A stretch of 64,000 nucleotides of DNA from Polyangia bacterium (GTDB lineage Bacteria > Myxococcota_A > Polyangia > Palsa-1104): positions 7,925 through 71,924 of the forward strand of contig JBDTCO010000042.1 in the NCBI GenBank assembly GCA_039923495.1, given 5' to 3'. The number at the start of each line of letters is the position of its first letter. Position 1 is the stretch's first letter. Positions 9,001 to 42,648 of this stretch are shown in pieces. The notes under the pieces are model-generated. The model saw nothing but the letters and a program-made list of their open reading frames with translations. It was not told the DNA's origin and made no database searches. Position numbers and translations under genes: made by a program.

Positions 9001-9222
9001 ATGAGTGCAGACGACGAAGACAACCGCACCTACAAGGTGGTTGTGAACCACGAGGAGCAGTACTCCGTGTGGCTCGCCGATCGCGAGGCGCCGGCGGGCT
9101 GGAGAGAGGTCGGCAAATCGGGAACCAAGGCCGAGTGCCTGTCGCACATCAAAGACGTATGGACCGACATGCGCCCGCTCAGCCTTCGCAAGCACATGGA
9201 AGCCGACGCGCAGAAGCAGTGA
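9001..9222 (+). CDS. MbtH-like protein
   Basis: 73 aa. [19 protein letters not shown]...[18 protein letters not shown] is the canonical MbtH signature, including the three conserved Trp. Confidence 0.9.
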
Positions 9223-9259
9223 TTGTCTCCTGTGACGCCAGCGCCCCCGGGGTGACTCC

Positions 9260-27351: not shown

Positions 27352-27864
27352 TCACTTCTTCTTTGCCGAGAGGCGTTTCTCGATCGTCTTCTCGAGATCG
27401 GGAATCTCGAGCACGCCGACGATGACCTCGGCCACGTCGCCTTCCTCGTCGAGGAGGAGGGATGTCGGGAGCGCTTCGAGGTTGCCGAGCGTGGCGACCG
27501 TCTTGTTCGGTGTGGACGCGAGCACCGGGTAGCTCACCTGGTGCTTCGCGAGGAACTGCTGCACCAGTGCAGGGTTCTCGTCGATGTCGATGCCGATGAC
27601 CTCGAAGCCGCGAGCCTTGTACTTGTCGCGCAGCTTCGACAGCGCGGGCATCTCGCCGACGCACGGCGAGCACCACGTGGCCCACAGGTTCACGAGCGTG
27701 AGCTTGCTGCCCACGAGCGGTCCGAGCTTCGTGCGCTTGCCATCGAGCGTCGACAGGAAGAGCTCCTGCTTTCGCAGGTCGAGCTTCTTCGGAGCGGCCT
27801 TGGGCGCGGCGAACGACGTGCTCGCCAAAAGGAGGGACGTCGCGACGAGGAGAGAGCGCATCAC
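27352..27864 (-). CDS. Secreted TlpA-like thiol:disulfide oxidoreductase (thioredoxin fold)
   Basis: Signal peptide MMRSLLVATSLLLASTSFA. Active site WATWCSPCVGEMP. The start overlaps the stop of the upstream gene. Confidence 0.85.
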   Translation of the reverse strand: MMRSLLVATSLLLASTSFAAPKAAPKKLDLRKQELFLSTLDGKRTKLGPLVGSKLTLVNLWATWCSPCVGEMPALSKLRDKYKARGFEVIGIDIDENPALVQQFLAKHQVSYPVLASTPNKTVATLGNLEALPTSLLLDEEGDVAEVIVGVLEIPDLEKTIEKRLSAKKK

Positions 27865-28949
27865 GAATAAGGATAAGGCAAGTAGCGAGGCGGCAACAGG
27901 CCGAGATCTTCGACGAACGGCACGTGCTCGAGCGCGATCTTCCCGAAGTACAGGCGCGAGAGATCACCGCCGGTGAGCACGTACTCCTCGACGAGCACGC
28001 GGCCCCACAGGTAGGCGTGGTCCTTGATGTAGCCGCCCGGTGCCTCGGTGTGACACAGGCCACGCTTCACGCGTCTCGTCATGGTGAACGACTCGGGGTG
28101 CGAGAAGCCGAGGTCGCGCAGCTCGGCGTAGACGTCGCGAAACGAGCTCGTGAGCGCGGCCATCGCGGCGATGACGCGCGCGGCGAACACGCGCGTGCGC
28201 GCCGTGTCGATGTAGCCCATGCGCTCCTCGTTGATGACGGCGAGGCCCTCCTCCGTCATGAGGTAGCTGGGCACGGCACCGACGGCGAAGATACGATATG
28301 GCTGGCTGTAGCCGTTGGCGGCGCGTAGCACGTGCGTGTCGATCTCGTGCACGACGAGGCGCTTCATCTCCTCCATGCTCGCCTGCAGATCGGCGCGCAG
28401 GTTGATGAGGCGGTTCGTGGGATCGGTGTTGGTCGCAGACAGGTTCGGCCTCACCTCGACGCGCCAGTCCTCGAGGCCGTACTGGCGGAGGCGCGCGGTG
28501 ACGAGCTTCACCTGATCGGTCGCGCGGAAGGGCCGCTCGACAGGGCGTTGCGACTGCTGCGGCTGCTTGAGGATGCGGCGCGCGAGCTGGATGACGTGCT
28601 CGGGCGCGCGCGGGTATAGCTGCTGCGCCCAGTGCGACTCGTCGCCGATGTTGAGCCGCAGGCCGATGCGCTTGACGAGGTACTCGCGCGCCTGCGTGAA
28701 GAACATGCCGACGCCGTAGCCCGGTAGATCGAGCGACTGCAGCTTCTCGATGTGGGCCGCGAGCAGCGCCTCGTCCTGGTGCGGGTACTCGAAGATCGGG
28801 TTGTAGTTCGGATCGAGCGCGACCTTCGCCATCTCCGCGGCCGAGTTGATCGGATCGAGGTGGTGCAGCGGCAAGGCCTCGGACGCGGCGAGGCAGAGCA
28901 GGCGGTCGGCCTCCTCGAGAGGGAGTGGTGCGGTCGAAGCCATGCTCAA
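27861..28949 (-). CDS. DUF1704 / QEGLA-motif protein (MATCAP-like metallocarboxypeptidase fold)
   Basis: HEIDTH (HExxH), EEGLAV (the QEGLA-like motif) and YIKDHAYLWG. 4-nt overlaps at both ends. Confidence 0.65.
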   Translation of the reverse strand: MSMASTAPLPLEEADRLLCLAASEALPLHHLDPINSAAEMAKVALDPNYNPIFEYPHQDEALLAAHIEKLQSLDLPGYGVGMFFTQAREYLVKRIGLRLNIGDESHWAQQLYPRAPEHVIQLARRILKQPQQSQRPVERPFRATDQVKLVTARLRQYGLEDWRVEVRPNLSATNTDPTNRLINLRADLQASMEEMKRLVVHEIDTHVLRAANGYSQPYRIFAVGAVPSYLMTEEGLAVINEERMGYIDTARTRVFAARVIAAMAALTSSFRDVYAELRDLGFSHPESFTMTRRVKRGLCHTEAPGGYIKDHAYLWGRVLVEEYVLTGGDLSRLYFGKIALEHVPFVEDLGLLPPRYLPYPYS

Positions 28950-30175
28950 AAGTAGTCCGGTGGCTCTTCTGCCACTGAGTAGAGCGCCATCTCCGTCGAC
29001 ATGGGTAGCTCGGGCATGTCTCGACGGTGGAACGCGAGTCGCACCCCGGCCTCGCGCACCGAGATGCGCAGCGTGGTGGCGAGGCGCGCGAGGTCGCGCA
29101 CGGTGGAGCGGACGTTGGTGCCGATGTACTCGCGCGTGTCGTCAGCGGTGTCGAGGATGCCGCGGAAGAGCGCGTCGGCCGCGAGCACCGCGCCGGTGGT
29201 GGCCGCGAAGTTGGGGAGCACCGGCGTGCCGCTCGCGACGAGGACCTTCTCCGCGTGCGTGCTGACCGAGCGCGCCGCCGCCTCGACGACGATGCGGGCG
29301 CGCAGGCGCCCGACGTTGTCGATGGTCACGGCGTCGTTGGACGCGAGGACGAGCGCATCGACGGGCAGCGAGTAGAACTCGTCGAGCGTGATGAACATGT
29401 GCGACGGATCGAGCGACAGCGACACGCGCGCGCCGGTCTCGAGCACCGAGGGGTTGAGGCCGCCCGCCGAGTACACGCCGGCCGAGGCCGAGCCGACCGC
29501 CACGACGGTGGCCCCCATGAGCGCGAGCAGTCGCCCGATCTGCGTGCCGAACGGACCCGCGCCGAGGATCGCGACGGTCTGCTGGCGGTGAAACAGAAAC
29601 TCGCCCATCTCCATGGTCGCGTGCGCGACGGACAGCGCGACCTGCTGCTCGCGCAGCGTGAGGCCGTCGGCGTCGGGCTGATCGAGGACGCGGTTGTACA
29701 GCTCCCAGCGCTCCATGCTCCAGCCCTGGCTGCGACGCACGGCCTCCATGCGCCACGGGAGCTTGTTCGCCTCGACGATGCGCTCGAGCATCACGGCCGG
29801 CACGTTCAGGTCGGGCCCGAGCGAGAGCACGGAGCCGAGGAGCGGCTTGAGCGAGGTGAGGAAGCGGCCGAGGACCTCTTCGATCTCGGGCGCCTGCGGA
29901 TCGTAGTTGAGCCCGAGGCGCGCGCCGCCGATGGGCACGCGTGCGAGCTGGTAGCGAATGGTGCCGATGCGCGCGAGACCGGCGAGATCGGTCCACTGCT
30001 GGTTTCGACGCACGCGGATGCCGCCGAACGCGACGCCCTGCGCGAGCGTGTCGATGATCGCGTAGCCGGGCGCCGCGGTGACGGGATCTCGCCAGTTGAT
30101 GACGAGCTCCGGCTCGGGGCCTTGCGTCATGGGCCCCCGATCCGAAAGACGCCGATCTTCTGACACGCTAGACAT
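28946..30175 (-). CDS. Glu/Leu/Phe/Val-dehydrogenase-family protein with the active-site Lys replaced by Arg
   Basis: FGGIRV substrate loop. The family signature reads V-P-I-G-G-A-R-L-G-L-N-Y-D-P (29897-29938). Rossmann motif AILGAGPFGTQIG. Start is ATG 30175 (8-nt overlap) or ATG 30130. Confidence 0.7.
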   Translation of the reverse strand: MSSVSEDRRLSDRGPMTQGPEPELVINWRDPVTAAPGYAIIDTLAQGVAFGGIRVRRNQQWTDLAGLARIGTIRYQLARVPIGGARLGLNYDPQAPEIEEVLGRFLTSLKPLLGSVLSLGPDLNVPAVMLERIVEANKLPWRMEAVRRSQGWSMERWELYNRVLDQPDADGLTLREQQVALSVAHATMEMGEFLFHRQQTVAILGAGPFGTQIGRLLALMGATVVAVGSASAGVYSAGGLNPSVLETGARVSLSLDPSHMFITLDEFYSLPVDALVLASNDAVTIDNVGRLRARIVVEAAARSVSTHAEKVLVASGTPVLPNFAATTGAVLAADALFRGILDTADDTREYIGTNVRSTVRDLARLATTLRISVREAGVRLAFHRRDMPELPMSTEMALYSVAEEPPDYF

Positions 30176-31793
30176 CCTCGAAACGCAGAATATCACCGTT
30201 CGCCGAGGAACCTGAATTTCGGTTCAGCAACGCATCGATGAGCCCCTTGTGTCGCTCGCGGACCTGATCGCGGCGTACCTTCAGGCTCGGGGTCAGCTCG
30301 CCCGACGGGATGGAGAAGGGCTGCGGCGCGACGCCGATGGCCACGATGCGCTCGTGACGACCGAGCTCCTCGTTGAGCAGCCGGACGTGCAGCGTGAGGT
30401 GTGCCCGCAGCTCGTCCGGCGTCATGAGGGCGGTGCGAAGACGTGGATCGGAGATGGCGTCGAGCACCGCGACGACGTGTGCGTGACCCTCGCCGAACAC
30501 CGCCGCGTGACGCACGCCGGGCAGCGAGGCGAGTCGGGCCTCCAGCGAGGCGGGGTGCACCTTCTTGCCCGTCGACAGGACGAGCAGATCCTTGCGGCGC
30601 CCGGTGATGTGCAGGAAGCCGTCCTCGATGCGGCCGAGATCGCCGGTGCGCACCCCATCGTCGCCGACGAAGAGGTCGGAGGTAGCCTGCGGATCGTCGA
30701 GGTACCCGATGCAGCGGAAGCCCTTGCCGAACAGCAGGACCTCGCCGGTGTCGTCGACCTCGACGCGCGAGCCCGGCAAGGCCTTGCCGACCGCGCCCAT
30801 GACCGAATCGCCCGGTGCGTTGTAGCTGCTCGCCCCGCTGGTCTCGGTCATGCCGTACATCTCGTGCACGGGAATCCCGAGCTTGAAGAGCGCGCGGTGC
30901 GCCTCGATCGCGAGCGGCGCGCCCGTCGACAGCGCGAGCCGGACGCGCTCGAGGCCGAGCGTGGAGCGGACCTCGTGCGACTGCCCGTGCAGCGCAGCGG
31001 CTGCCGTCGCGAGCGTCTGCCACTCGGCGGGCACACCCATGAAGAACGTGGGCCGCACGGCCGCGACGGCCTCCGTGAGACGTCGACCGCGCGGGAAGAC
31101 CACGGAGTAGCCCGACGCCATCGGCAGCACGACGCTCATGAAGATCTCGGCGAGGTGCGCGAAGGACAGGTACGAAAGGTGTCGATCGGACGGCCGGTGC
31201 GCGCGCACCTCCGTCATGCGCCGCGCCGCGCGCAGCATGTTGCCGTGCGAGAGCAGCACGCCCTTCGGCACGCCCGTCGATCCGGACGTGAAGATCACGA
31301 ACGCGATGCGATCTGCGGGCGTGCGCACCGCACCGGGTGGATCGAGCGGCGCGGCCAAGGGTGGCGCGTCATCGATGATCGCGACGTGTGGATCTTGCGG
31401 ACGTGCAGGATTGACGGGCTCGACGAGCTTCGGCGCGAGCCAGTCGAGCAGATCGGGATCACCCATCGCGAGCGCGACGTGCGCGCGCGTGACCAGCGTG
31501 CGCAGCTGCACGGGCGGCGTCGACGGCTCGATCGACACCACGACACCTCCCGCGAGCAGCACGCCGTGCACGAGCGCCGGCACGCGCGCGCGCGTTCGAC
31601 ACACGACGAGCACCGCCTGACCGAGCCGCAGCCCGAGCGCGCGCAGGCGATTCGCGACCTGCTCTGCCTCGAGGTGAAGCTGGAGGTACGTGACGGGCGG
31701 ATCACCGCCGGTCTCGAGGGCGGAGGCCGTTGGCCGTAGCTGCGCCATCTCGGCGAGTGCTGCGCCGATCGTCGCGGGGTGCTCCCACATCAC
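30168..31793 (-). CDS. AMP-dependent synthetase/ligase (ANL superfamily, fatty-acyl-CoA-ligase-like)
   Basis: FTSGSTGVPKGV, YGMTET, GDLGRIEDGFLHITGRRKD and a C-terminal SLKVRR Lys. Confidence 0.85.
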   Translation of the reverse strand: MMWEHPATIGAALAEMAQLRPTASALETGGDPPVTYLQLHLEAEQVANRLRALGLRLGQAVLVVCRTRARVPALVHGVLLAGGVVVSIEPSTPPVQLRTLVTRAHVALAMGDPDLLDWLAPKLVEPVNPARPQDPHVAIIDDAPPLAAPLDPPGAVRTPADRIAFVIFTSGSTGVPKGVLLSHGNMLRAARRMTEVRAHRPSDRHLSYLSFAHLAEIFMSVVLPMASGYSVVFPRGRRLTEAVAAVRPTFFMGVPAEWQTLATAAAALHGQSHEVRSTLGLERVRLALSTGAPLAIEAHRALFKLGIPVHEMYGMTETSGASSYNAPGDSVMGAVGKALPGSRVEVDDTGEVLLFGKGFRCIGYLDDPQATSDLFVGDDGVRTGDLGRIEDGFLHITGRRKDLLVLSTGKKVHPASLEARLASLPGVRHAAVFGEGHAHVVAVLDAISDPRLRTALMTPDELRAHLTLHVRLLNEELGRHERIVAIGVAPQPFSIPSGELTPSLKVRRDQVRERHKGLIDALLNRNSGSSANGDILRFEDV

Positions 31794-32698
31794 GAGTGCG
31801 TGGCGCTCCGTGAGAAGACCGCGGCCTCGATGATGTTGGCGAGCTCGAAGCGACGCGCGTTGCGCAGCGTGAAGTGGTTCGAGTCGCGGATGCGCAGGAA
31901 GCGCGCGAGGCCACCCGGCACGACGCCGAGGAACGCGGCCACGTGCTCGTCGGGAACATCCTCGGCCTCGATGACGAGGGTGGGGACGGCCAGCTGCGCG
32001 AGCGCAAGGAGCGGCACGCGGTTCGGGAACCGCTCCGTCGGCACGCGGAAGACCGGCGGCGACTGCCTGGAGCCTTCGTCATCGGACGCGATGCAGGCGT
32101 CGATGTAGCTCTCCTGCAGCGCGGAGTCGGTGTGCGCGTGCGCCGCGTCGCCGAAGAGCTTCTGCCAGCGCTTGCGCTGGAACTCGGCGGTGTACGGGAT
32201 GTACGTGTTCTCGCGCTGTGCGCTCTCGCGCTCCGCGATCATGGTGTCGAGCAGCGGCCCGGACGTGGCGCCCGCCAGGTAGCAGAGCGATGACGGGTTG
32301 TTGAGGATCGCCAGGCTCACGTGCGGCACGTCGAGCGCCGCGGCGAGCACCTGGATCGCGCCACGCGACGAGCCGAACAGCGTGAGCGGCGCGGGCCAGC
32401 GGCGGCGCGCGTCCTCGGCCACGGCGCGGATGTCCTCGACGGAGTCGTCGAGCGTCTGCAGTGCCCCTGGTGCCGGCGCCGACGACATGCGTGCGTCACG
32501 CTGCGACTTGCCGAAGTTGCGGTGATCGAGCGCGACGGCACGCAGCCCGCGCGACGCGAGCTCCCGGAGGAACGAGTAGCCCGGCACGTCGAGGTCGTAC
32601 GTCGGCTCGAGCGGCGCCGCGATGCCGTGCACGAGCACGACGACGGGCGCATCGAGCGGCAGCCCCTCGCGCTCGGCCACGCGGCAGCGCAGCGTCAC
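31790..32698 (-). CDS. Alpha/beta-fold hydrolase
   Basis: VVVLVHG oxyanion region and nucleophile elbow FGSSRGA (GxSxG). Start uncertain: GTG 32698 is chosen, and the frame is open to about 32739. The stop overlaps the AMP-ligase start. Confidence 0.65.
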   Translation of the reverse strand: MTLRCRVAEREGLPLDAPVVVLVHGIAAPLEPTYDLDVPGYSFLRELASRGLRAVALDHRNFGKSQRDARMSSAPAPGALQTLDDSVEDIRAVAEDARRRWPAPLTLFGSSRGAIQVLAAALDVPHVSLAILNNPSSLCYLAGATSGPLLDTMIAERESAQRENTYIPYTAEFQRKRWQKLFGDAAHAHTDSALQESYIDACIASDDEGSRQSPPVFRVPTERFPNRVPLLALAQLAVPTLVIEAEDVPDEHVAAFLGVVPGGLARFLRIRDSNHFTLRNARRFELANIIEAAVFSRSATHS

Positions 32699-32742
32699 GC
32701 CGTCGCGCGTCGAGACCTCGTAGTCCGCTCTGGTGATGGCGC

Positions 32743-33549
32743 TCAGGTGCAGAGCTCGCGGAGACGCAGCCCCTCGCGCGTCCCCATGCGCATGATGACG
32801 GAGTCGGTGCGATAAAAGACGCCCTTGATGCCCTTGTCCCACAGGCGCGCCTTGGCGATCTCGGGCGTGAGCTCCCCGCCGAGCACGGGCACCGTCATGA
32901 CCGACTTGCCGTACTTGTCGGCCGCGGCGACGATCTTGTCGAGGGCGGCTGCGATCTCCGGGTTGCCGAAGCCCTTGTCGGGCGGCAGGTGGTACGAGTG
33001 CGACAGGTCGACGGGCCCGATGTCGTACATCTCGATGCCCGGCACCGACATGATCTCGTCGATGTTGTCGACGGCTTCCTTGTCCTCGATGATCGGGATG
33101 ATCATCGCCTGATCGTTGGTCCACTCGATGAGGTCGTTCATCTTGCCCTGCGCGTACTTGTTCGCGCGGCTGACCGTGCACAGGCCACGCGTCCCGCGGG
33201 GATGGAAGTACGCGGCGTCGGTCGCGCGCTTGAGGTCCTCGGCGTTGACGACGTGCGGCACCTTGATGATGGGCGCGCCAGTGTTCATCGCGTCCGAGAT
33301 GATGACCGGATCGTTGTCCTTGAGCTTGATGATCGGGACGATGCCGGTGCACTCGGCGGCGCGGACCATGCTCTCGACGGTCTCGGGGTTGATGCTGAGC
33401 ACCTCGGTGTCGACGATGACGAAGTCGAAGCCGGCGTGACCGATGATCTCGACCATGACGGGCGTCATCGTCGAGCACGTCATGCCGAGCACGAGCTGCT
33501 TCTTCTGGACCTTCTCGCGGAATGCTTTGAATCGAGCTACGTCAGCCAT
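32743..33549 (-). CDS. HpcH/HpaI-family aldolase (class II pyruvate aldolase / citrate-lyase-beta-like fold)
   Basis: GFDFVIVDTE, IIPIIEDKEAVDNIDEI and GPVDLS are typical of the family. Confidence 0.78.
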   Translation of the reverse strand: MADVARFKAFREKVQKKQLVLGMTCSTMTPVMVEIIGHAGFDFVIVDTEVLSINPETVESMVRAAECTGIVPIIKLKDNDPVIISDAMNTGAPIIKVPHVVNAEDLKRATDAAYFHPRGTRGLCTVSRANKYAQGKMNDLIEWTNDQAMIIPIIEDKEAVDNIDEIMSVPGIEMYDIGPVDLSHSYHLPPDKGFGNPEIAAALDKIVAAADKYGKSVMTVPVLGGELTPEIAKARLWDKGIKGVFYRTDSVIMRMGTREGLRLRELCT

Positions 33550-33552
33550 GTC

Positions 33553-34083
33553 TCAACCTTTTTTCGTGGAGAACCAATTGTCGATGCCGTCGCACGCGAC
33601 GCGTGCCATGGCGCGACGCTCGTCGTCGAGCACACCGGCGAGCGGGTGCGCGATGAGGACGGTGCGAACGTCGGTCATGCCATAGGCGGTCGCCTCGTTC
33701 CGGGCCAGGGTCTCGAACGGCTCGGTGACGACGACGATCGCCGGCTTGCCCCGGCGCTCGAGAGAGATCGAGTCGTGGATACACCACGACGTGCAGGAGC
33801 CTCAATCACCGGAGGCGATGATCGTCACATCGACCTCCCGCGAGAGGGTATCGAGCGCCATGACGGACGCGGGTGTCGGCGGTGACTTCGTCTGCCGCAC
33901 GACCTTCTTGAACTTGCCGTGACGACGCTCGAGCTCCCGGACGATGTCCTCGAGCAAGAGCGTCGCGTTGGGCTTCTGGTTGTCGAGGATGCCGAGCGTC
34001 ACGCCCGACAGCGAACGCGGCAGTGGGTTCTGCTTCTGCTGCTTGACCTCGGGATGACGGACGGTGGGGATTCGAACGCGCAT
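33553..34083 (-). CDS. Selenoprotein candidate, 176 aa, U-G-S-C motif (TGA 33802-33804 read as selenocysteine)
   Basis: The frame of ORF 33802..34083 continues without stops for 82 codons past the TGA. My hand translation is ...IIASGD-U-GSCTSWCIHDSISLERRGKPAIVVVTEPFETLARNEATAYGMTDVRTVLIAHPLAGVLDDERRAMARVACDGIDNWFSTKKG*. A hairpin lies 11 nt downstream of the TGA. The stop is 3 nt before the next ATG, and the start overlaps the upstream stop (TAATG). Confidence 0.75.
33772..33790 (-). promoter_or_regulatory. SECIS-like stem-loop downstream of the in-frame UGA
   Basis: The mRNA reads UGA-GGCUCCUGCAC-GUCGUGG-UGUAU-CCACGAC. This is a perfect 7-bp stem with a 5-nt loop containing GU, and the loop starts 19 nt after the UGA. 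Confidence 0.55.
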
Positions 34084-35849
34084 TAACAGTCACACTCCGG
34101 GACGAGCGGCGGCGGTGCGCCGGTGGGCGTGTAGTCGATGAGGCGGGTCGCGGGGCGGCCGAAGCCGAAGCTCGGCATGAACGACGAGTGACGACCCGTC
34201 CCGCCCGCGACGAACACGAGGAAGTCCGTGGGAGCGGCGCCGATGGGGATGCCGCGCTCCGTCCACGTGGCCTTGTCGACGTCCTCACGCGCGAGCAGCC
34301 ACTCGCGCATCTCGTCGTTGAGCACCGACGGGAGCACGCGCGCGTTGTCGCACAGCCACGCCTGCACCATCTCGCGCGTCCAGCCGTCGCGCGCGAGCAG
34401 CTTGGCGTGCTCGGGTCCGAGCGCGATCGTCGGGTGACCGCCGCGCGCGAGGTCATTGGTGCCGAACGTGGCCATCGTGCCGGCGAGCATCTTCATGAAC
34501 GACAGCGCCGTCTGCGACGAGTGATCGTTCACGTTGTGCGGGCCCTCGGCCTGACACACGGTGACCACCGACTGCTCGGGTGCGAAGCCGAGCGCGACGT
34601 GGAGCGGTGGGAACGGGCTCTCTTCCTGGTTCTCCGCGACGCAGAAGCCGAAGCGTGCCGGCGAGCCCTGCGTCGTGAAGTCGGTGCGGCCCGGACGACC
34701 CCCGCCGACGTTGCGCAGGATGAGGCGGATGGCGCGACCGATGGTGGCGCTGGCCTGCGTGCCTTCCCCCATCGCGTTGCCCGACAGGTTGAAGCCGAGC
34801 TCGTAGCGGATGGGGCCGCTGATGACGAGGAGCGGCGTCACCGGGTGCGTGGTGGCCTGCACGCCGAGCAGGTTGTAGCGCGGGTCCATCAGCGCCTCTG
34901 TGGCGGCGACGATGACGCAGAAGTACTCGGGCCGGCAGCCCGCCATCACCGCGTTGACCGCGAGCGCCTCGATGGTGACCTCGCCCTGCCTCGGCGCCAT
35001 GAGCCCGAGGACCTCGCCCGCGGGCCGCTTCTGCGACGCGATCATCTGGAGGACCGCCTCGTCGGTCGGCGGGATGATCGGCAGCCCGTCGGTGTAGCCG
35101 CGACGGTAGAACGCGTCGGAGGCGCCACGCGCATCGCGCGGCAGGTTGGTGAAGACGTCGTCCTCGAGCGGCTCCCGCGAGTACGGCCCGTACACGTGCA
35201 CCTCGCCGGGCCCGCCCTCGGCGAGCTCGGCGGCGACGGTTGCATCGTTGGTGGTGTAAAGGACCAGGTACTCGCCGAGCGCTTTTTCGCGACCGTCGTA
35301 GAGGCGCGCCGTTGCGTCCTTGCGCGCGCGCACGGTGGCGACGTGGGTTTCCAGCTCGCTCAGCTTCACCGTCTGGTGCGGCACGAAGCGCATCACGGTG
35401 TGCGCGTGCGTCTGGTCGACCTCTTGCCGCCCCGGCACGAGCTGGTGGTAGAGGCGCCGCGTGAACGTGCGCGTCACCTTCAGCATGCGCGCGGTCCACG
35501 GCGAGCGGTTCACGCCGGCCTTCGACTTGTACGCGTCGGCGTCGAGGCACTCGAGCGAGTCGAGATCGTAGAGCGCGATGTAGCGCGGCGCGATGCGACG
35601 CTCCGCGCGACGTCCCGTGCGAAAGCCGGGGATGCCGAGCCGCTCGGGGATGTGCTCGGTGTCGTACCAGTCGTTGAACTCTTCTTCGAGCTCGGGCGGC
35701 ACGTCGAGCTGCGCGAAGATGAGCCCGAACGCCTTCGCGGCGGCAGGCTTCGGCGTCTTTGCACGCGGCGGAGCGACGCGCTTCTTCGGCGCCCTCGCTC
35801 TCGCAGGCGCAGCCTTGGCCACGGTCTTCCGTCGGCGCTCGGTCGTCAT
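34083..35849 (-). CDS. Two-domain protein of unknown function (basic tail plus EthD/dimeric-alpha-beta-barrel-like N-domain plus about 350-aa uncharacterised C-domain ending in ECDC)
   Basis: 588-aa ORF with good composition. EEEFNDWYDTEHIPERLGIPGF resembles EthD-like barrels. The C-domain (YRRGYTDGLPIIPPTDEAV...) matches nothing I can name. The TAA stop shares one nt with the selenoprotein ATG. Confidence 0.6.
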   Translation of the reverse strand: MTTERRRKTVAKAAPARARAPKKRVAPPRAKTPKPAAAKAFGLIFAQLDVPPELEEEFNDWYDTEHIPERLGIPGFRTGRRAERRIAPRYIALYDLDSLECLDADAYKSKAGVNRSPWTARMLKVTRTFTRRLYHQLVPGRQEVDQTHAHTVMRFVPHQTVKLSELETHVATVRARKDATARLYDGREKALGEYLVLYTTNDATVAAELAEGGPGEVHVYGPYSREPLEDDVFTNLPRDARGASDAFYRRGYTDGLPIIPPTDEAVLQMIASQKRPAGEVLGLMAPRQGEVTIEALAVNAVMAGCRPEYFCVIVAATEALMDPRYNLLGVQATTHPVTPLLVISGPIRYELGFNLSGNAMGEGTQASATIGRAIRLILRNVGGGRPGRTDFTTQGSPARFGFCVAENQEESPFPPLHVALGFAPEQSVVTVCQAEGPHNVNDHSSQTALSFMKMLAGTMATFGTNDLARGGHPTIALGPEHAKLLARDGWTREMVQAWLCDNARVLPSVLNDEMREWLLAREDVDKATWTERGIPIGAAPTDFLVFVAGGTGRHSSFMPSFGFGRPATRLIDYTPTGAPPPLVPECDC

Positions 35850-35902: not shown

Positions 35903-36976
35903 TCAGAACGAGGTGGCGATGCCGACGATGTTGCTGAGGCCGTAGCCGGTGTTCACGCCCGTGAGCGTGTGCGAGATGGTGTAGCTGAGGCCGATCCACT
36001 TGACCGGGAACAGCAGCAGCGTGCCGCCGAAGGTCATGGAGCTGGCGTTGTTGGCCTGGCCGCAGAACTGCGTGAAGGGGTTGCCCTTGGTGGCGATGCC
36101 GTTGCGACCCGGCACGTCGCCGTTCTCGAACGAGTGGAGGCCGCTCAGCGTCGCGATGAGCGTGGCGTGGTCGAACCAGCTCAGCTTCTTCTTGGGGGCG
36201 AGCGTGCCGCCGGCCTGGACGTCCCACGGCAGGTCATCGGAGTACGTGGTGGAGTCCGAGGTCGAGCCGAACTTGCAGCTCGCCTTCTTGAGGCGGTGAC
36301 GGAAGCCGACGTCGGCTGCGAAGAACACAGGGATGGGGTAGAGCGAGTAGCCGAAGCTGCCGCGCGCCTCGATGTCGAAGGTGCCGTTGCCGGTCGGGAT
36401 GGGCAGCGGCTTGGCGCCGGGCAGCATCGCCGCCGCGGGGTACGCGGAGCGGCCGTTCACGTCGCCCGTGGGCGCCGTGAAGTAGAGCTGGGGACCAAAG
36501 GCAAAGCCCTTGAGCGCCCTGATCCTCGGGAGCTGCTGCTTGAGCCCGAAGGTGACGTCGCCGGTGTTGAGCTCGCTGAGCTTCGCGGGGACGACCGTGT
36601 GGATGTCCTGGGTGACGTAGCGGATCACCGGCATCGAGAACGTCGCGCCGAGCCCGCGCCACAGCGAGACCTCGCCGTAGAGCAGCATCGACTGATCGAC
36701 GTAGTTGCTCTTGTAGTTGGCGGTGATGAAACCGCTCGAAGTCGGGATGCTGATGTTGCGGCGAGTGCCGGGCCTGACGGGCTTGAGGTTTTCGTCGACC
36801 TCGCCCGGACCGGCAAAGTAACGGTCCGCCGAGTAGTTGGCGTACGAGAGCTGGATGAATCCATGGCCGGGCCTGTCATCGACCCAGGGCCCGGCCATGG
36901 CTTCGCGGTGCGCGACTCCGAGGCAGAGGAGACCTGCTGTTACAGTAAGGAGTCCACTACGCAGGGAGACGCGCAC
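35903..36976 (-). CDS. Outer-membrane beta-barrel protein
   Basis: Signal peptide, alternating beta-strand pattern, and a C-terminal aromatic residue (...NIVGIATSF). Confidence 0.65.
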   Translation of the reverse strand: MRVSLRSGLLTVTAGLLCLGVAHREAMAGPWVDDRPGHGFIQLSYANYSADRYFAGPGEVDENLKPVRPGTRRNISIPTSSGFITANYKSNYVDQSMLLYGEVSLWRGLGATFSMPVIRYVTQDIHTVVPAKLSELNTGDVTFGLKQQLPRIRALKGFAFGPQLYFTAPTGDVNGRSAYPAAAMLPGAKPLPIPTGNGTFDIEARGSFGYSLYPIPVFFAADVGFRHRLKKASCKFGSTSDSTTYSDDLPWDVQAGGTLAPKKKLSWFDHATLIATLSGLHSFENGDVPGRNGIATKGNPFTQFCGQANNASSMTFGGTLLLFPVKWIGLSYTISHTLTGVNTGYGLSNIVGIATSF

Positions 36977-36983
36977 TGTTTAG

Positions 36984-37853
36984 TTAGTTGTTCGGATCCT
37001 GCGGGGCGAACGAGACGTAGCCCGGCTGCACGTCACAGCCGAACGCCGCCGCGTAGGTGTTGGCGCCGCTGTCGGCCGTCGCGGTGATGTGGATCGTGGT
37101 GGGGGCGGTGAGGCCCGTCTTCGTGAAGCCGTGGATGCCGATCATCGAGTCCGCCTGCTTGACGAACGTGGGGGGCATCGTCATCGGATTGGTGTACCCG
37201 TACTGGTCGAAGCCCGTCTCGGCGACGGCGGTGGTCGACGGCGTGAGCTTCACGTACGGCGCCTGGAAGTGGTCATTCGAGCCGTACATGCAGACGCCCT
37301 GGGTGACGAGCGAGGCGATGTCGATCCCAGCGGCGGCGGCGACGCCGACCGGCGCGGAGTACGGGTTGCTCGTGCAGACGTGGGCGGGGATGCCGGGCAG
37401 CGCCGAGGTGCCGACGACTTCCATGTCCTGCGAGTACGTGTTGACGACCTTCGTCGCGTCGAAGGCATCGGCGACGAGGTGGAGCTTCTTGCCCTGCTCC
37501 GCCTGGATCGTGTAGTTGCACATGTCGTCGGCCATGACCGTCGCGGTCATGCCGCCACCCTCGTACACGCCGTGGACGGGCGTGTTCTTGACGCAGCTCT
37601 TCCCGATGAGCTCCTGCGGGGTGGCGGTCGGGGTCATCTGGAGGTTGAAGGACAGCAGATCGATGTCGATCGTGAAGCCGCTGACCGCGGTCGTCAGTGG
37701 CGCAGTGGCCATGTCGCCCTTGTCGCCGCCGTCGTCCGTGACCACGTGGGCCATGTCGCCCTTGTCGGTGCTGCCGTCCGTCTTGTTGTTGCTGCTACCG
37801 CCGCAACCGATGAGTCCCACTGCCGCTGCTGCAAGAAGATGAGTCTTTTTCAC
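36984..37853 (-). CDS. Lipoprotein of unknown function
   Basis: GTG 37853 is preceded by GGAGG (37859-37863). Lipobox AAAAVGLIGCGG. Contains a duplicated DKGDMA segment. Confidence 0.65.
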   Translation of the reverse strand: MKKTHLLAAAAVGLIGCGGSSNNKTDGSTDKGDMAHVVTDDGGDKGDMATAPLTTAVSGFTIDIDLLSFNLQMTPTATPQELIGKSCVKNTPVHGVYEGGGMTATVMADDMCNYTIQAEQGKKLHLVADAFDATKVVNTYSQDMEVVGTSALPGIPAHVCTSNPYSAPVGVAAAAGIDIASLVTQGVCMYGSNDHFQAPYVKLTPSTTAVAETGFDQYGYTNPMTMPPTFVKQADSMIGIHGFTKTGLTAPTTIHITATADSGANTYAAAFGCDVQPGYVSFAPQDPNN

Positions 37854-38096: not shown

Positions 38097-38603
38097 TTAC
38101 TGGCCCGGCGCAGGTGGTGCGGAGCACGTGAACGCGTAGCCGTAGTCGGTGCAGTCGGCGTGGCAGTTGATGCAGTTACGGTCGTCCTGCGTGACGACTT
38201 TTTTGTCCGCGAAGATACGCTGCCAGCGCCAGTCGTTCGTGAGCGGGGACGTGCCGTTGTCGAGCTTCACCATCACGGTCCACTGGATGATGTTGCCGCT
38301 GCAATCGGTGTCGTCGATATCGTACTCGGGCTTCACGACCACGGCGCCCGTCGGGAACGGCTCCATCCGGCCCGTGTACGGTATGTACGCGGCGTCGTCG
38401 GTGAAGACCGTGACGTTGTCGAGGTTGTGCTCGGTGCTGGAGCGACACGGACGCACCTGCTTGAACGTGGTCGCGTAGTCTGCGGGCAGCCCCGAGACGT
38501 ACTTCGGAGCGCTGGGACCGCCGCAGCCGGGACTGCATACAACGCTGCATGCGACGCTGCATGCAATTACAAGCAGGCGTGGACAGAGCAACGAGATCTT
38601 CAA
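38097..38603 (-). CDS. Haem-binding lipoprotein, cytochrome-P460-like (single CxxCH)
   Basis: TTG 38603 gives LKISLLCPRLLVIACSVACS... The C-terminal NCINCH haem motif is preceded by VVVKPEY...WTVMVKL...WRWQRIF, which resembles the P460 fold pattern. Confidence 0.45.
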   Translation of the reverse strand: MKISLLCPRLLVIACSVACSVVCSPGCGGPSAPKYVSGLPADYATTFKQVRPCRSSTEHNLDNVTVFTDDAAYIPYTGRMEPFPTGAVVVKPEYDIDDTDCSGNIIQWTVMVKLDNGTSPLTNDWRWQRIFADKKVVTQDDRNCINCHADCTDYGYAFTCSAPPAPGQ

Positions 38604-38617
38604 TGGGCTCCCGGTAT

Positions 38618-40006
38618 TCACGGCAGGTTCACGACGCGCACGCGCTGGTTGTAGGAGTCGGTGATGTACAGCTTCTTGCCGCTCAGCTCGACGCCGTACG
38701 GGCGGTTGAGCCTGGCGAGGAGCGGGTCGCCCCCGTCGCCGCCGAAGCATACGTCGGTCGCCTTCACGCAGCCGGCCGTGCCATCCGTGGAGAAGCAGCT
38801 CCCGGTGCCGCCGCACATGCCGCCCGTGGTGCAGTCGCCGGCGACGCGCGAGATGGTCCCCGACGGATCGATCTTGCGGATGCAGTTGTTGAGCGTATCG
38901 GTGAAGTAGATGGTGTCGTCGTCGGCGATGGCGAGGTCAATGGGGTGGGCGAGCTGTGCCTTCGTCGCCGGGCCCCCATCGCCGCTGTACGCATTCTCGC
39001 CACCCGAGCCGGCGACCGTCTGCATGTTGCCGTTCACGTCGATCTTGCGGATGCGATTGCCGCCCGTGTCCGCGAAGATGAGCTCGCCTTGCTTGTTGAA
39101 GGCGAAGCGGCCCGCCGGATCGGCTGACTGACCGAACGGCTGGTTCATGCGCGCCGAGAGCGCAGGGCCGCCGTCGCCGCTGTAGCCGGGCGTGCAGGGC
39201 CAGTTGCAGGCCTCGTCGCGCTTGGCCTGCGCGGCCTCGGGGCTCGTCGGATCGGTGCAGTACGTCGCCTTGTTCGAGCCCGGGCACTGGTAGAGCTCGG
39301 TGCCCATGGTGCACATGGTCGAGACCGTGTCGTACTGCTCCGTGAGGCATGTGCCGGCGAGCCGGTGGATGATGCCCGCCGAGTCGATGCTTCGGATCAC
39401 CTGGTTGGCCTGGTCCATGATGACGAGGTCGCCGCTCGGCGCGCGCGCGATGCTGCTCGGCAGGTCGAGGTACGCGTCGGCAGCTGGGCCCTCGTCGCCG
39501 CTGTACTTCGTGCGCTTGCCGACGCCCGCGAAGTGCGTGTACGTCATCGTCGAGAGCTCGACGCGGTTGATGCGGCTGTTGTGCCACGCAGCGAGGTAGA
39601 GGGAGCCGTCGGCGTCGAAGAACATGTTCGGCGTGTGGTTGAACTTCGCGTCGAGCGCGGGGCAGCTCGGTACACCCACGTCGGGGCTGTCGCCGAGGAA
39701 GCCGACGCCGACGACGGTGCTGATCGTGCCCTTCGGGTCGATCTCGCGGATGAGGTAGTTGTTGAAGTCGAGCACCCACAGGTTGCCGTTGGGCGCGATG
39801 ACCGAGTCCTGTGGCGTGTAGAGCGACGCCTTCGTGGCCGGGCCGTTGTCACCGGCGAGCAGCGCCTGGCCATCCCCGGCGATGGTGCAGATGGTGTTGG
39901 GTGCGTTCGGATCGCAGCTTATGCCGTGCTTCCCGTTCGCGCAGCCCGTGCCAAGGAGAGATGCTGCGAACGCAGTGACGAGCGTGGCGGTCGAGAGCTT
40001 GTTCAT
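38618..40006 (-). CDS. NHL-repeat beta-propeller lipoprotein 1 (Cys-rich inserts)
   Basis: ATG 40006 overlaps the upstream stop (ATGA). Lipobox LLGTGC. Repeated SGDGGPA...P..L/I..D..G.LY..D..N..IR motifs. Confidence 0.8.
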   Translation of the reverse strand: MNKLSTATLVTAFAASLLGTGCANGKHGISCDPNAPNTICTIAGDGQALLAGDNGPATKASLYTPQDSVIAPNGNLWVLDFNNYLIREIDPKGTISTVVGVGFLGDSPDVGVPSCPALDAKFNHTPNMFFDADGSLYLAAWHNSRINRVELSTMTYTHFAGVGKRTKYSGDEGPAADAYLDLPSSIARAPSGDLVIMDQANQVIRSIDSAGIIHRLAGTCLTEQYDTVSTMCTMGTELYQCPGSNKATYCTDPTSPEAAQAKRDEACNWPCTPGYSGDGGPALSARMNQPFGQSADPAGRFAFNKQGELIFADTGGNRIRKIDVNGNMQTVAGSGGENAYSGDGGPATKAQLAHPIDLAIADDDTIYFTDTLNNCIRKIDPSGTISRVAGDCTTGGMCGGTGSCFSTDGTAGCVKATDVCFGGDGGDPLLARLNRPYGVELSGKKLYITDSYNQRVRVVNLP

Positions 40007-41211
40007 TTGGTCCATTCCGAGGCGACGCGCACGATACGGTGGTTTCCCGTATCGGCGACGTAGAGGTTGTTCAGGGCATCGAACGCGATGCCCCACGGCT
40101 GGTTGAGCTGGATGTCGAGCGCCTGGTGGTGCGTACCGCTCTCGATGCACGTGCGGCCCGAGCACTGCCCCGTGCCAACGACCGTGGTGAGCACGCCGGT
40201 GGTGATGTCGAGCGCGTCGATGATGTTGGCGTCGCGCTCCGCCATGAAGAGGCGGCCATCGGGGCCCCACTCGAGATCGAGCGGCGAGTGGAGCGCCACG
40301 GTGAACGTGCAGCCCGACGGACCCGCGAGACAGGAGATCTGCTTGGTGTCGAGATCGATGACGCGGATGCGCTGGTTGGTGCCGTCCGAGAAGTAGAGCT
40401 TGTGACCCTGGATCGCGAGCGCGCCGGACGGGTTCGGCGTGTCGTTCTCGTTGTACTCCCAGCCGACGGTTGCATCGACCGCGGGGCCGCCGTCGCCGGA
40501 GTACGACTCCGTGCCGTTTCCGGCGATGGTGGTGATGGTGCGATCGGCGTCGATGTCGATCATGCGGAGGCGCTCGTTGCGCTGGTCGATGAGGTAGATG
40601 CGGCCCGCGTCGTCGAGGACGATCGACTTCGGCAGGTTCATGAGCGCGTTGGCCGCGGGGCCCCCGTCGCCCGCGAAGCCGTACGTGCCACCGGCGAGCA
40701 CCTTGTCGAGGCCCTTCGTCGGGTCGACGACCCGGATCTTGTTGTCGTGCCACGCGGCCAGGATGAACGTGCCATCGGCGGCGAAGCGCACGTCGGTGGG
40801 GTGGTTGAGCGCGACGATCTGCGGGTTGCAGCCCGGCGCCGTCTTGTACGGCATCTCGTCGGACGGGTTGGGCGGACCGTCGCCCTCGTAGTCGGTGCCA
40901 ATGAACGTCGTGAAGATGCCGTCCTTCTCGACGCGACGGACGCGGTGGTTGTTCCAGTCGGAGACGTACGCGCGTCCATCCGAAGCGAAGGTGAGGTCGG
41001 CCGGGAAGTAGAGCGGCGTGTCGACGAGCGGGTTGCCATCGCCGATGCCGTAGCCCGCGGCCCCCTTCGCGTTGGCCCACGAGCACGCCTCACCGGGCGT
41101 GTTCGTGCAGTCGCCACCGGAGTTGTCGGCCGCGTTGAAGGCGCTACGGGACGCGCACCCAACCGGGAGCAGCAGGGCTGCGAGACCGGCACCAGCGACG
41201 AGCTTGTTCAT
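40003..41211 (-). CDS. NHL-repeat beta-propeller lipoprotein 2
   Basis: Lipobox LLPVGC. NHL blades (AGDGGPAANALMNLPKSIVLDDAGRIYLIDQRNERLRMI and others). Confidence 0.8.
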   Translation of the reverse strand: MNKLVAGAGLAALLLPVGCASRSAFNAADNSGGDCTNTPGEACSWANAKGAAGYGIGDGNPLVDTPLYFPADLTFASDGRAYVSDWNNHRVRRVEKDGIFTTFIGTDYEGDGPPNPSDEMPYKTAPGCNPQIVALNHPTDVRFAADGTFILAAWHDNKIRVVDPTKGLDKVLAGGTYGFAGDGGPAANALMNLPKSIVLDDAGRIYLIDQRNERLRMIDIDADRTITTIAGNGTESYSGDGGPAVDATVGWEYNENDTPNPSGALAIQGHKLYFSDGTNQRIRVIDLDTKQISCLAGPSGCTFTVALHSPLDLEWGPDGRLFMAERDANIIDALDITTGVLTTVVGTGQCSGRTCIESGTHHQALDIQLNQPWGIAFDALNNLYVADTGNHRIVRVASEWTK

Positions 41212-41274
41212 GGACGCATCCTTTTGTCGTTCGTTTGGGTTGTCGTTCGTTTGTCGTTCGCAGAAGCCATGGGT

Positions 41275-42438
41275 TTATCGGAGCCTCACGGAGCGCGCCA
41301 CGTTCGCGAGCTGGTCGGCAATGTAGAGCGTGCCGTCCGTGATCGACAGGCGCGCGGGGTGATTGAGCTTCGCCTCGAGCGCGGGACCGTTGTCGCCGAA
41401 CAGGCCGCTCGCGCCGGTGCCCGCGTAGGTGTCGATGACCTCCGAGGTGGGATCGACGCGACGGATGCGCGAGTTGAACGTGTCGGACACGTATATGGCG
41501 CCATCGCTGTCGACCGCGATGCCGCCCGGCTGGAAGAGCTGCGCCTGCAAGCACGGCCCGCCATCGCCGGAGAAGCCGCCGGTGAAGCCATCGGGGTGCG
41601 TGCCGACGACGGTGGAGATGATGCCGCTCGTCATGTCGATCTTGCGGATGACCTGGTTGGCGGTGTCGGCGACGAGGAGGTTGCCCTCGACGTCGATCGC
41701 GAGCGCGCCGGGCGTGTCGAGGTGTGCCTTCACGGCCGGGCCGCCATCGCCGTCGAACGCCGGCTTGCCGTCGCCCGCGAGCGTGGAGACGGTGCCGTCC
41801 ACGTCGATCATGCGGATCTGGTTTGCGCCGTCGTCGGCGAGGAACACGCGGCCCTTTTTGTCGACGGCGATGGCGTCGAGCTCGCAGAAGCCGGCCTCGA
41901 GCGCCGGCCCCCCGTCACCGGTGCCGTAGCAGATGTGCGAGCCGTCGGGGAGATCGCCGACGCCATCTGCGCCCCTGCCGGCGACGAGGTGCATGCGCTG
42001 GTCGAGGCCGATCTCGTAGAGCTTCGGATCGTGCCAGGCGACGATGATGTTGCGACCGTCGGCGCGGAACGCGAAGTCGATGGGATCGAGGATGCCCGTC
42101 GCGGTGGCGAGCGCGCCATCGATGGAGCCGACGTGCAGACCATTGCCTGCAACGATGCGCATCGTGCCGTCCTTCTCCACGACGCGCAGGTAGTAGTTGT
42201 TGAGGTCCATGACGTACACGAGCCCGTCGGGACCGACGCGCACGGATGATGGCAGGTAGAGCGGCGTCTTGATGGCCGGCAGGTTGTCGTCCCCGAGGCC
42301 GCGCGCGCCATCGCCGGCGACGCGGCACATCTCGCCGACGCCATCGCACGTGGTGCCGCTGCTGCAGCCCGTCCCTGCGAACAGGGACAGGGAGAGCGCT
42401 GCCACTGCGGCCATCGACAGCGAGGAATGTAGGCGCAT
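41275..42438 (-). CDS. NHL-repeat beta-propeller lipoprotein 3
   Basis: ATG 42438 (MRLHSSLSMAAVAALSLSLFAGTGC). NHL blades (DGDGGPAVKAHLDTPGALAIDVEGNLLVADTANQVIRKI and others). Confidence 0.8.
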   Translation of the reverse strand: MRLHSSLSMAAVAALSLSLFAGTGCSSGTTCDGVGEMCRVAGDGARGLGDDNLPAIKTPLYLPSSVRVGPDGLVYVMDLNNYYLRVVEKDGTMRIVAGNGLHVGSIDGALATATGILDPIDFAFRADGRNIIVAWHDPKLYEIGLDQRMHLVAGRGADGVGDLPDGSHICYGTGDGGPALEAGFCELDAIAVDKKGRVFLADDGANQIRMIDVDGTVSTLAGDGKPAFDGDGGPAVKAHLDTPGALAIDVEGNLLVADTANQVIRKIDMTSGIISTVVGTHPDGFTGGFSGDGGPCLQAQLFQPGGIAVDSDGAIYVSDTFNSRIRRVDPTSEVIDTYAGTGASGLFGDNGPALEAKLNHPARLSITDGTLYIADQLANVARSVRLR

Positions 42439-42609
42439 GGACACCTCTTCATACTGCGTGTCGTACCGCTCGTGCTGCGAGCGCGCAGCGCAATGAACTG
42501 TGTTCACCGTTACACGCGTAACGAGGTCGGTCAAGGACTCGTTCCCGTCGGAGACGGGGCCAGTCGAGATATGTCCGACACGTCGGTTATGCGCATTCCC
42601 TGGGCGCAT

Positions 42610-42648
42610 GCCCATGCGCCAGGCCCATGCGCCAGGCCCATGCGAAGG
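42610..42648. repeat. 13-bp tandem repeat (GCCCATGCGCCAG, about 3 copies) in a long divergent intergenic region
   Basis: Read directly: 42610-42622, 42623-42635, and a degenerate copy at 42636-42648. Confidence 0.85.

Follow-up and report, generated by a model that had tools for sequence, protein, structure and literature searches.

A probable selenocysteine codon in a UGSC-family gene of a Polyangia bacterium and the pairing of this family with a second conserved protein

Introduction

The 'UGSC-containing protein' belongs to the most abundant selenoprotein families found in the selenoproteomes of the Sargasso Sea and of the Global Ocean Sampling (GOS) survey, where 255 selenocysteine (Sec) forms were counted against 21 cysteine (Cys) forms (PMC2398784). 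Zhang and Gladyshev (PLoS Genet 2008; PMC2398784) described it as having 'likely a Trx-like fold' (Trx, thioredoxin) and reported fusions to a domain named Unknown_1, and a 2026 review still places UGSC among the selenoproteins whose functions 'remain largely uncharacterized' (PMC13188914). Here we analyse a UGSC gene on a 64,000-nucleotide stretch of DNA, referred to below as the window, from a Polyangia bacterium (GenBank assembly GCA_039923495.1, contig JBDTCO010000042.1, positions 7,925 to 71,924 of the forward strand). The family has been known since 2005-2008 and has curated hidden Markov models (HMMs); the window gene is an added member and not a new family. To this known family we add a comparatively validated selenocysteine insertion sequence (SECIS), a prediction that corrects its presumed thioredoxin fold, and its near-obligate pairing with Unknown_1 (hereafter U1).

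Two further systems serve as points of reference. In the Escherichia coli fdhF gene, as set out in PMC8659212 with citation of Liu et al. 1998, the minimal SECIS is a stem-loop lying 11 nt from the UGA and starting at nt 15, with G23 and U24 of its loop contacting SelB. The selenoprotein B subunits GrdB, GrdF and GrdH carry a UxxCxxC motif, and PrdB is their homologue.

The window gene has in common with the UGSC family (NF041046/PF24696) the motif D-U-G-S-C-T-S-W-C-I-H-D, the Sec/Cys column, the SECIS and the association with Unknown_1. Most UGSC lineages have the order UGSC-U1, fused or adjacent, whereas in the window and in close Myxococcales relatives the order is inverted, with U1 followed by UGSC as separate, coupled genes. 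In this clade, unlike other UGSC-family loci, U1 also has an extra N-terminal tandem ABM-like domain (ABM, antibiotic biosynthesis monooxygenase) and a C-terminal Cys-Asp-Cys tail. We consider it highly likely that the window gene is read through at Sec94 and that UGSC and U1 form a two-part module in which UGSC is the redox small subunit. The principal features are:

33553..34083, minus strand: predicted UGSC-family selenoprotein coding sequence (CDS), 176 aa, Sec94 (translation; NF041046 and PF24696 scores; third-position-biased substitutions on both sides of the TGA against loci L001, L002 and L167)
33802..33804, minus strand: UGA very probably read as selenocysteine (U94), in the motif D-U-G-S-C-T-S-W-C-I-H-D (aligned TGA/TGC column; Cys-form homologues with DCGSC)
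33772..33790, minus strand: putative SECIS hairpin, 7-bp stem GUCGUGG/CCACGAC, loop UGUAU (minimum free energy and centroid folds, comparative pairing, frozen synonymous sites)
34086..35114, minus strand: U1 core domain, residues ~246-588 of ORF 34083..35849, corresponding to 'Unknown_1' of Zhang and Gladyshev 2008 (tblastn, adjacency and fusion; no Pfam or NCBIfam model)

Results and discussion

Reading frame and family identity

The minus-strand frame from 34083 to 33553 is open except for the TGA at 33802-33804 and encodes 176 aa. A 93-aa open reading frame (ORF; 33802..34083) stops at this TGA, after which the frame stays open for 82 codons up to the TGA at 33553-33555. In the read-through product, MRVR...IIASGD-U-GSCTSWCIHD...STKKG, Sec is residue 94, and the tryptic peptide predicted across it is EVDVTIIASGD-U-GSCTSWCIHDSISLER. 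The ATG of the gene and the TAA stop of the upstream ORF have base 34083 in common (1-nt overlap), its stop lies 3 nt ahead of the next ATG (33549), and the competing ORF 33542..33805 proves on translation to be an arginine-rich shadow. An earlier note on this DNA, written from the sequence alone, had described this layout, including the 82 open codons, the shadow ORF and the 3-nt junction, and had proposed that the TGA is decoded as Sec; retranslation and rechecking upheld all of its sequence-level statements. It had also given the name 'UGSC family (seleno)protein' for an uncharacterised family, which is correct on both counts.

With U replaced by C for the HMM scans, the window protein scores 134.4 bits against NF041046 'UGSC family (seleno)protein' (NCBIfam; curated cut-off 125, E 2.9e-39) and 161.9 bits against PF24696 'UGSC' (Pfam; cut-off 25), with residues 3-167 on model positions 2-166 of 172. 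Both alignments run straight across the TGA and cover nearly the whole model. Scanning one genome per species gave 185 relatives, from which 80 loci were kept; the closest among these, with 90% and 74% identity, are Myxococcales metagenome-assembled genomes (MAGs) recovered from glacier-fed streams, which makes a myxobacterial origin of the window probable. The Sec column holds TGA at 70 loci and TGC at four, all Sphingomonadales, and eight further genes have TGA in a U-G-G-C variant, making ~78 TGA against 4 TGC in ~82 related genes. These genes come from Myxococcota, Methylomirabilota/Rokubacteria, Alpha-, Beta- and Gammaproteobacteria, Chloroflexota, Actinomycetota and others. The homology search with U changed to C, which the earlier note had put forward as a check, thus yields full-length HMM matches and homologues with either TGA or Cys at the column. 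Full-length homologues in the protein database are Cys forms with DCGSC, and one close homologue there terminates at ...GSGD, that is, where the gene caller cut at the TGA.

Genome-wide reassignment of TGA, or an altered genetic code, was excluded as an explanation: TGA ends 28 of the 42 genes in the window, the UGSC gene's own terminator included. A six-frame scan of the 64 kb (GC content 68.5%) for lone TGAs with flanks of coding-like third-position GC content found no credible second selenoprotein with an in-frame TGA, and its only other hit was an antisense shadow of the aldolase gene that follows UGSC.

Selection on the codons past the TGA

Across the downstream 82 codons, the window and L002 differ at 17, 13 and 37 sites at codon positions 1, 2 and 3, and L001 and L002 at 14, 11 and 37. 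This codon-position bias matches the pattern upstream of the TGA, and L167, a syntenic contig from the European Nucleotide Archive (ENA), agrees. Judged from these substitutions, the 82 codons are under protein-coding selection in the window lineage; codon-level conservation in relatives, named earlier as a further check, is therefore of coding type. The annotation of L167 consists of a 93-aa 'UGSC' gene call followed by a 250-nt gap, exactly the hole in the operon that the earlier note had foreseen if read-through were disregarded. Standard gene callers thus cut a selenoprotein gene to a 93-aa stub and leave a false 250-nt intergenic gap.

A comparatively supported SECIS hairpin

The hairpin that had been noticed eleven nt 3' of the UGA (33790-33772 in the direction of transcription) is present in both the minimum free energy (MFE) and centroid folds. 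With the U of the UGA as nt 1, its perfect 7-bp stem occupies nt 15-21 and 27-33, and its apical loop reads U22 G23 U24 A25 U26. The stem is built from the T-S-W codons on one side and the (I)-H-D codons on the other.

Synonymous sites were compared in 71 Sec-form genes whose genomes span 38-73% GC. From codon +4 to codon +10 past the UGA, synonymous entropy is 0.1-0.4 bit, against 0.8-1.9 bit in the flanking codons, with Thr written ACG in 67/71 genes, Ser UCG in 69/70, Cys101 UGU in 68/70, Ile AUC in 67/69 and Asp GAC in 68/70. The near-universal UGU for Cys101 is accounted for by its third base, which is U24 of the loop. The sole free site in this interval is the His codon, CAC or CAU, where either base pairs with the opposite G. 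Precisely the frozen positions are relaxed in the four Cys-form genes, which have ACC, UCA/UCC, UGC and GAU.

When 64 distinct sequences are aligned, 99.3% of the cells in the 7-bp stem are paired, compared with 21-59% when the partners are slid, and two stem pairs are altered on both sides. In L054, a betaproteobacterial contig, a Ser-to-Thr change (UCG to ACG) is matched by an Asp-to-Val change (GAC to GUC), converting U-A to A-U, and in L076_b and L045 a G-C or G-U pair has become A-U. The proposal that this is a bacterial-type SECIS is well borne out by the 99.3% pairing, the compensatory changes and the freezing of synonymous sites in Sec forms only. Like the E. coli fdhF minimal SECIS, the element starts its stem at nt 15, presents G23 and U24 in the apical loop and lies within the coding sequence; it differs in its 5-nt loop and has no conserved lower helix. 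Its near-invariance across phyla is due to its overlap with an invariant peptide.

Taken together, family membership, the TGA/TGC column, the comparatively validated SECIS and the coding-type selection downstream support Sec decoding, and TGA 33802-33804 is very probably a selenocysteine codon. The organism's capacity to make Sec-tRNA may be deduced from the selection that acts in its lineage on the TGA, on the SECIS and on the frame beyond them.

Two Sec-form UGSC genes, at 10001-10411 and 16799-18144, lie on the single contig L054. One is a U-G-G-C variant, and the other reads T-T-W-C-S-H-V, both residue changes being compensatory in the SECIS stem.

Pairing with the partner protein U1

UGSC is near-obligately paired with U1, as judged from gene adjacency and fusion, which the earlier note had missed. 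U1 is adjacent to or fused with UGSC in 77/80 loci; the remaining three run up against the edge of their contig. At most UGSC loci the frame remains open for ~450 codons past the TGA and includes an additional domain of ~340 aa; in the fused protein of L030 this domain is 48% identical to the window U1 core (tblastn, E 3.6e-90). Fusions are known in both orders, UGSC-U1 and U1-UGSC, and the reverse-order U1-UGSC fusions finish exactly at ...GSGD or ...AIGD, which is the position of the Sec codon. A metagenomic contig (L081, Logan SRR28480390) has two back-to-back Cys-form pairs at 6907-10216, one ordered U1 to UGSC and the other UGSC to U1.

An exhaustive profile search placed 7,739 representatives at 50% identity in the U1 family, 5,069 of them with E <= 1e-10. 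Their length classes comprise stand-alone proteins, full-length UGSC-U1 fusions, N-terminally cut Sec-form fusions, U1-UGSC proteins, tandem U1-U1 proteins and one fusion to a thioredoxin-reductase-like (TrxR-like) domain. The last, P0265 (695 aa), joins U1 to a domain resembling the low-Mr (low relative molecular mass) thioredoxin reductases (Pyr_redox_2) with the motif FCAVCD. U1 is annotated as hypothetical in all sources, and the U1 core had no Pfam or NCBIfam match even at E = 10 among the 37 members scanned. Searches of PDB by sequence and by profile with U1, the U1-core profile, UGSC and the UGSC profile returned chance-level hits only. With no Pfam model for its ~7,700 clusters at 50% identity, U1 leaves the domain databases with a large gap. 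His, Glu, Asp and Asn are frequent among its invariant residues, which fall in the motifs TDGLP, NAVMAG, TTHP, GRAxR, EGPHNxxDH, GPEHA and GGxGxHS.

The window U1 is carried by the upstream ORF 34083..35849 (minus strand, 588 aa), in which two further parts are recognised:

35187..35726, minus strand: N-terminal extension of the U1 protein, predicted tandem ferredoxin-like domain (ABM/EthD/DUF4286-like; AlphaFold2, Foldseek, weak DUF4286 hit at E 0.066)
34086..34094, minus strand: C-terminal Cys-Asp-Cys tail of the U1 protein (last three residues, present in the closest subfamily, P0017-P0028)

The extension (~200 aa) is modelled by AlphaFold2 (AF2) as a tandem ferredoxin-like barrel with a predicted local distance difference test (pLDDT) score of 86, and is confined to the Myxococcales-type homologues of the U1 protein. 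Foldseek matches of the 588-aa model in PDB are ABM-like monooxygenases and HemQ/Cld tandem barrels over ~220 aa, and these top fold matches are due to the N-terminal ABM-like domain, not to the U1 core. At its other end the protein finishes with ...VPECDC*; this tail is kept in P0017-P0028 and absent from other U1 subfamilies and from UGSC-U1 fusions, and could be a mobile redox tail.

Predicted fold and conserved residues of UGSC

The earlier note had read UxxC as a thioredoxin-type motif, and the fold prediction departs from that view. The model, made for a 51%-identical Cys form (pLDDT 93.7, predicted template modelling score 0.88), consists of five beta-alpha-beta units, and its PDB matches are generic flavodoxin-like domains with template modelling (TM) scores of 0.4-0.53; no thioredoxin fold occurs among the top 50 PDB matches. 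UGSC is thus predicted to be a five-strand parallel flavodoxin-like alpha/beta domain and not to be thioredoxin-like. In the model Sec/Cys lies between strand 3 and helix 3, with C97 and C101 on successive turns of that helix. Invariant residues include N35 and K37 after strand 1, H146 and P147 after strand 5, and D93. Based on the order of the secondary-structure elements, the loops with Sec94, N35/K37, D93 and H146/P147 would gather at the C-terminal edge of the sheet. Active sites of flavodoxin-like folds usually lie at this edge.

Conservation of C101 reaches at least 90%. Sec forms all have His at position 103, where most Cys forms have Tyr; since the H103 codon is within the SECIS stem, this invariance may reflect an RNA constraint rather than a protein one. 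Compared with the UxxC/CxxC oxidoreductases of thioredoxin fold (Trx-, glutaredoxin (Grx)-, peroxiredoxin (Prx)- and DsbA-like), UGSC is alike in having a redox-type U-x-x-C at a helix N-terminus, and differs in its predicted all-parallel flavodoxin-like sheet, its partner protein and the extra invariant residues around the motif.

Relation to selenoprotein B

For comparison with PrdB, a PrdB sequence was used solely as a probe and retrieved 80 real loci including Clostridioides difficile, 79 of them with TGA; the C. difficile protein was identified as PrdB by TIGR04483 (418 bits). Alignment of the UGSC and PrdB profiles with hhalign gave a single local match spanning 45 columns (P 3.8e-4, probability 36%), in which Sec falls on Sec and Cys on Cys within the module strand-[U]G[ST]C-helix-G(I/K)P-strand. 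The native score of 33.4 compares with 23.7 for the reversed control and at most 19.5 for 20 column shuffles. C. difficile PrdB also matches NF041046 at E 2.4e-4 across the same Sec loop. Selenoprotein B (PrdB, TIGR04483; GrdB/F/H, TIGR01917/01918; PF07355) shows weak reciprocal profile similarity to UGSC over ~45 residues and resembles it in a U-G-[ST]-C that follows a strand and precedes a helix, then G(I/K)P and a strand. Both would have a second, larger partner subunit, and Stickland reductases depend on a thioredoxin-type system for their re-reduction, which may be compared with the U1 protein fused to a TrxR-like domain.

There are also differences. UGSC has 176 aa, against 241 to ~435 aa in selenoprotein B, and the spacing UxxCxxxC in place of UxxCxxC. 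PF07355 and TIGR0191x gave no hit for the window protein, and none at E <= 10 for 79 UGSC homologues. U1 is not homologous to PrdA/GrdE, and neither a pyruvoyl proprotein (PrdA/GrdE) nor grd/prd accessory genes occur among the family-scanned genes of the window. UGSC occurs for the most part in aerobic bacteria of soil, freshwater and the sea; haloarchaea have Cys forms. That UGSC 'works like selenoprotein B' is a reasonable analogy; its membership of the GrdB/PrdB family is not established.

Proposed function

We favour the following mechanism. The SECIS within the T-S-W-C-I-H-D codons would recruit SelB with Sec-tRNA(Sec), yielding a 176-aa protein in place of a stop at 93 aa. Sec94 would stand at the N-terminal end of helix 3, with Cys97 one turn away and Cys101 two. 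UGSC would be the redox-active small subunit, and the U1 core, from the translationally coupled upstream gene, its partner. Judging by where the motif lies, by the PrdB-like loop and by the one TrxR fusion, U1 may bind the substrate, on which Sec94 would act as nucleophile or reductant; Cys97 would then resolve the intermediate to a selenenylsulfide, and a thioredoxin-reductase-type dithiol relay could re-reduce it.

The probable role of UGSC is that of redox subunit in an enzyme of two parts that takes part in carboxylic-acid/CoA catabolism, and the safest statement, drawn from the gene neighbourhoods described below, is that the UGSC-U1 module would serve the catabolism of some carboxylic acid as its CoA thioester. 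A more far-reaching version, which we hold with more doubt than belief, is that UGSC and U1 make up a widespread two-subunit (seleno)enzyme and a new class of Sec-dependent reductase, acting in aerobes on a substrate that is a carboxylic acid or an acyl-CoA; UGSC, the small subunit, would then be related to selenoprotein B in miniaturised form and U1 would be a new catalytic fold, with Cys versions in haloarchaea. The pairing with U1 turns the function of UGSC into a testable two-protein problem, and cultured organisms with Cys versions of the pair exist in Sphingobium baderi LL03 (ATIB01000081, L165) and Salinigranum rubrum (CP026309, L082).

Alternative explanations

The simplest alternative takes the TGA as a true stop, giving a 93-aa product or a pseudogene, or as an assembly error for TGC, with the downstream 250 nt non-coding. 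Public gene callers do halt there, as in L167, and Sec machinery is not visible within the window. However, the same TGA occurs in three independent close relatives (L001, L002 and L167) and in ~75 more distant genes, the downstream frame is open and its protein 74-90% conserved with third-position-biased change, NF041046 and PF24696 align over their full length across it, and the SECIS is under selection at the nucleotide level; we regard this explanation as extremely improbable. If the TGA is read as Sec, UGSC might still be a free-standing thioredoxin-like thiol/selenol oxidoreductase and general antioxidant, as the literature assumes, with U1 unrelated in function. The UxxC at a helix N-terminus and the redoxin gene in the same operon fit such a role, which the predicted flavodoxin-like fold, with no thioredoxin fold among the top 50 matches, makes very unlikely; U1 adjacent or fused at nearly all loci, in both fusion orders, and the conservation of N35, K37, C101, H146 and P147, suggestive of an active site beyond CxxC, point the same way.

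There are two other proposals. UGSC could be a miniaturised member of the GrdB/PrdB family and the locus a Stickland-type amino-acid reductase; the common Sec-loop module with its hhalign P-value, the PrdB match to NF041046 and the documented UxxCxxC of GrdB speak for this. Against such descent, neither PF07355 nor TIGR01918 picks up UGSC members, even at E = 10; the similarity extends over just 45 columns, and masking the motif makes it marginal; a pyruvoyl proprotein of the PrdA/GrdE type is missing, and U1 has no relationship to such proteins; the context has no grdA/C/D or prdC-F, and the hosts are mostly aerobes, so that we give it little credence. Somewhat less remote, though still unlikely, is that U-x2-C-x3-C(-x-H) is a set of metal or cofactor ligands, for a Se-ligated metal or an Fe-S-like centre formed with U1, and not a selenenylsulfide couple. 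Conservation of C101, invariance of H103 among Sec forms and the many invariant His, Glu and Asp of U1 (TTHP, EGPHNxxDH, GPEHA, GGxGxHS) would suit a metal site, as would a CobW-type metallochaperone GTPase near UGSC in eight loci and metal-dependent amidohydrolases as common neighbours. The replacement of H103 by Tyr in most Cys forms, its codon being held by the SECIS stem in Sec forms, argues the other way, as does a spacing unlike that of known cluster motifs, and the TrxR-like fusion and PrdB-like loop favour dithiol chemistry.

The reading that we prefer, Sec94 read-through and a UGSC-U1 module with a redox small subunit, has evidence weighing against it too. None of selA, selB, selD and tRNA-Sec was found in the 64-kb window (ARAGORN found no tRNA, and tblastn with E. 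coli SelA, SelB and SelD gave chance hits); the same tblastn search of 82 loci found nothing, an absence made uninformative by the short flanks. For the window sequence alone, the folding energy of the 71-nt stretch around the hairpin is no better than that of shuffles (z = -0.56), so the case for the SECIS rests on comparative data. The perfect 7-bp stem differs from that of fdhF in having no bulged U17, and Rfam gave no match, either with the whole window at gathering thresholds or with 33650-33900 under permissive settings (only a chance snoRNA, E 0.96); Rfam seems to have no model for this element. The structural model is that of a collinear, 51%-identical Cys-form proxy, built by AF2 from a 79-sequence alignment, and not of the window protein itself. 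With the four motif columns masked, the UGSC-PrdB score falls to 24.9, near the reversed null of 23.7. hhalign of U1 with PrdA, PrdD, PrdE and proline-racemase clusters from the 80 prd loci gave probabilities below 1%, on which ground U1 was rejected as a PrdA/GrdE analogue by descent. As to the reductant, TrxR-like genes are absent within 10 kb in all 82 UGSC loci, so the type of fusion seen in P0265 is rare and a thioredoxin reductase was rejected as a regular neighbour, and the operon's redoxin was dropped as a candidate because its signal peptide and TlpA-like WCSPC motif make it probably exported. Finally, P0248 (553 aa), a full-length UGSC-U1 fusion, has AEIGGSLFG in place of D[U/C]GSCTSWC and no U or C; it may be a redox-dead variant, and at least some family members thus cannot use the proposed chemistry.

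Operon and gene neighbourhood

The genes around UGSC and U1 are as follows (assignments from Pfam/NCBIfam unless stated):

32743-33549, minus strand: HpcH/HpaI aldolase-like
31790-~32716, minus strand: alpha/beta hydrolase
30168-31793, minus strand: AMP-forming ligase
28946-30196, minus strand: Glu/Leu/Phe/Val dehydrogenase-like
27861-28949, minus strand: MATCAP/DUF1704 peptidase-like (PF08014, E 1e-40; kept in L002 and L167)
27352-27864, minus strand: exported redoxin (AhpC-TSA-like), last gene of the unit (signal peptide; WCSPC motif, TlpA/ResA-like)
35903-36976, minus strand: upstream gene, 357 aa, no Pfam/NCBIfam match
36984-37853, minus strand: upstream gene, 289 aa, no Pfam/NCBIfam match

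The genes in 27352..33549 (minus strand) have tight junctions and belong to the same apparent transcription unit as UGSC; the full arrangement is kept only in L001, L002 and L167. A 562-aa ORF at 31790-33478 (minus strand) is drawn too long and runs, in another frame, into the aldolase gene. Its hydrolase domain starts at about residue 278 and the syntenic call has 308 aa, which places the real gene at ~31790-32716. The two upstream genes are conserved in L001 and L167, and not in L002. A 244-nt gap precedes the gene at 36984-37853 and holds the region's only sigma-70-like match (38014-37986); we infer that the genes from 35903 to 37853 belong to the UGSC transcription unit.

Across 76 loci, the neighbour met most often, U1 apart, is an AMP-forming acyl-CoA-synthetase-like gene (21 loci, a haloarchaeal one among them); next come a luciferase-like monooxygenase (17) and then short-chain dehydrogenase/reductase (SDR), enoyl-CoA hydratase, amidohydrolase and CobW GTPase genes (8 each). 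The annotated surroundings of the pair in Sphingobium baderi, in Salinigranum rubrum and in a Pseudomonadota MAG contain many acyl-CoA dehydrogenases, thiolases, hydratases and CoA-transferases, together with PrpD/PrpF, isocitrate lyase (ICL) and AcnX.

The neighbours of the two back-to-back pairs in L081 (HpcH aldolase, RraA-like, GH3 adenylating, enolase-superfamily and alpha/beta-hydrolase genes) recall the themes of the window operon. Upstream of that operon, at 38097-42615 on the minus strand, the window has NHL-repeat beta-propeller genes (41275-42615, 40003-41211 and 38618-~39997) and then a cytochrome P460-like gene (38097-~38560), a block also conserved in L167. In L167 an rve-family transposase fragment (9291-9788) separates U1 from the two unassigned genes, an insertion without counterpart in the window.

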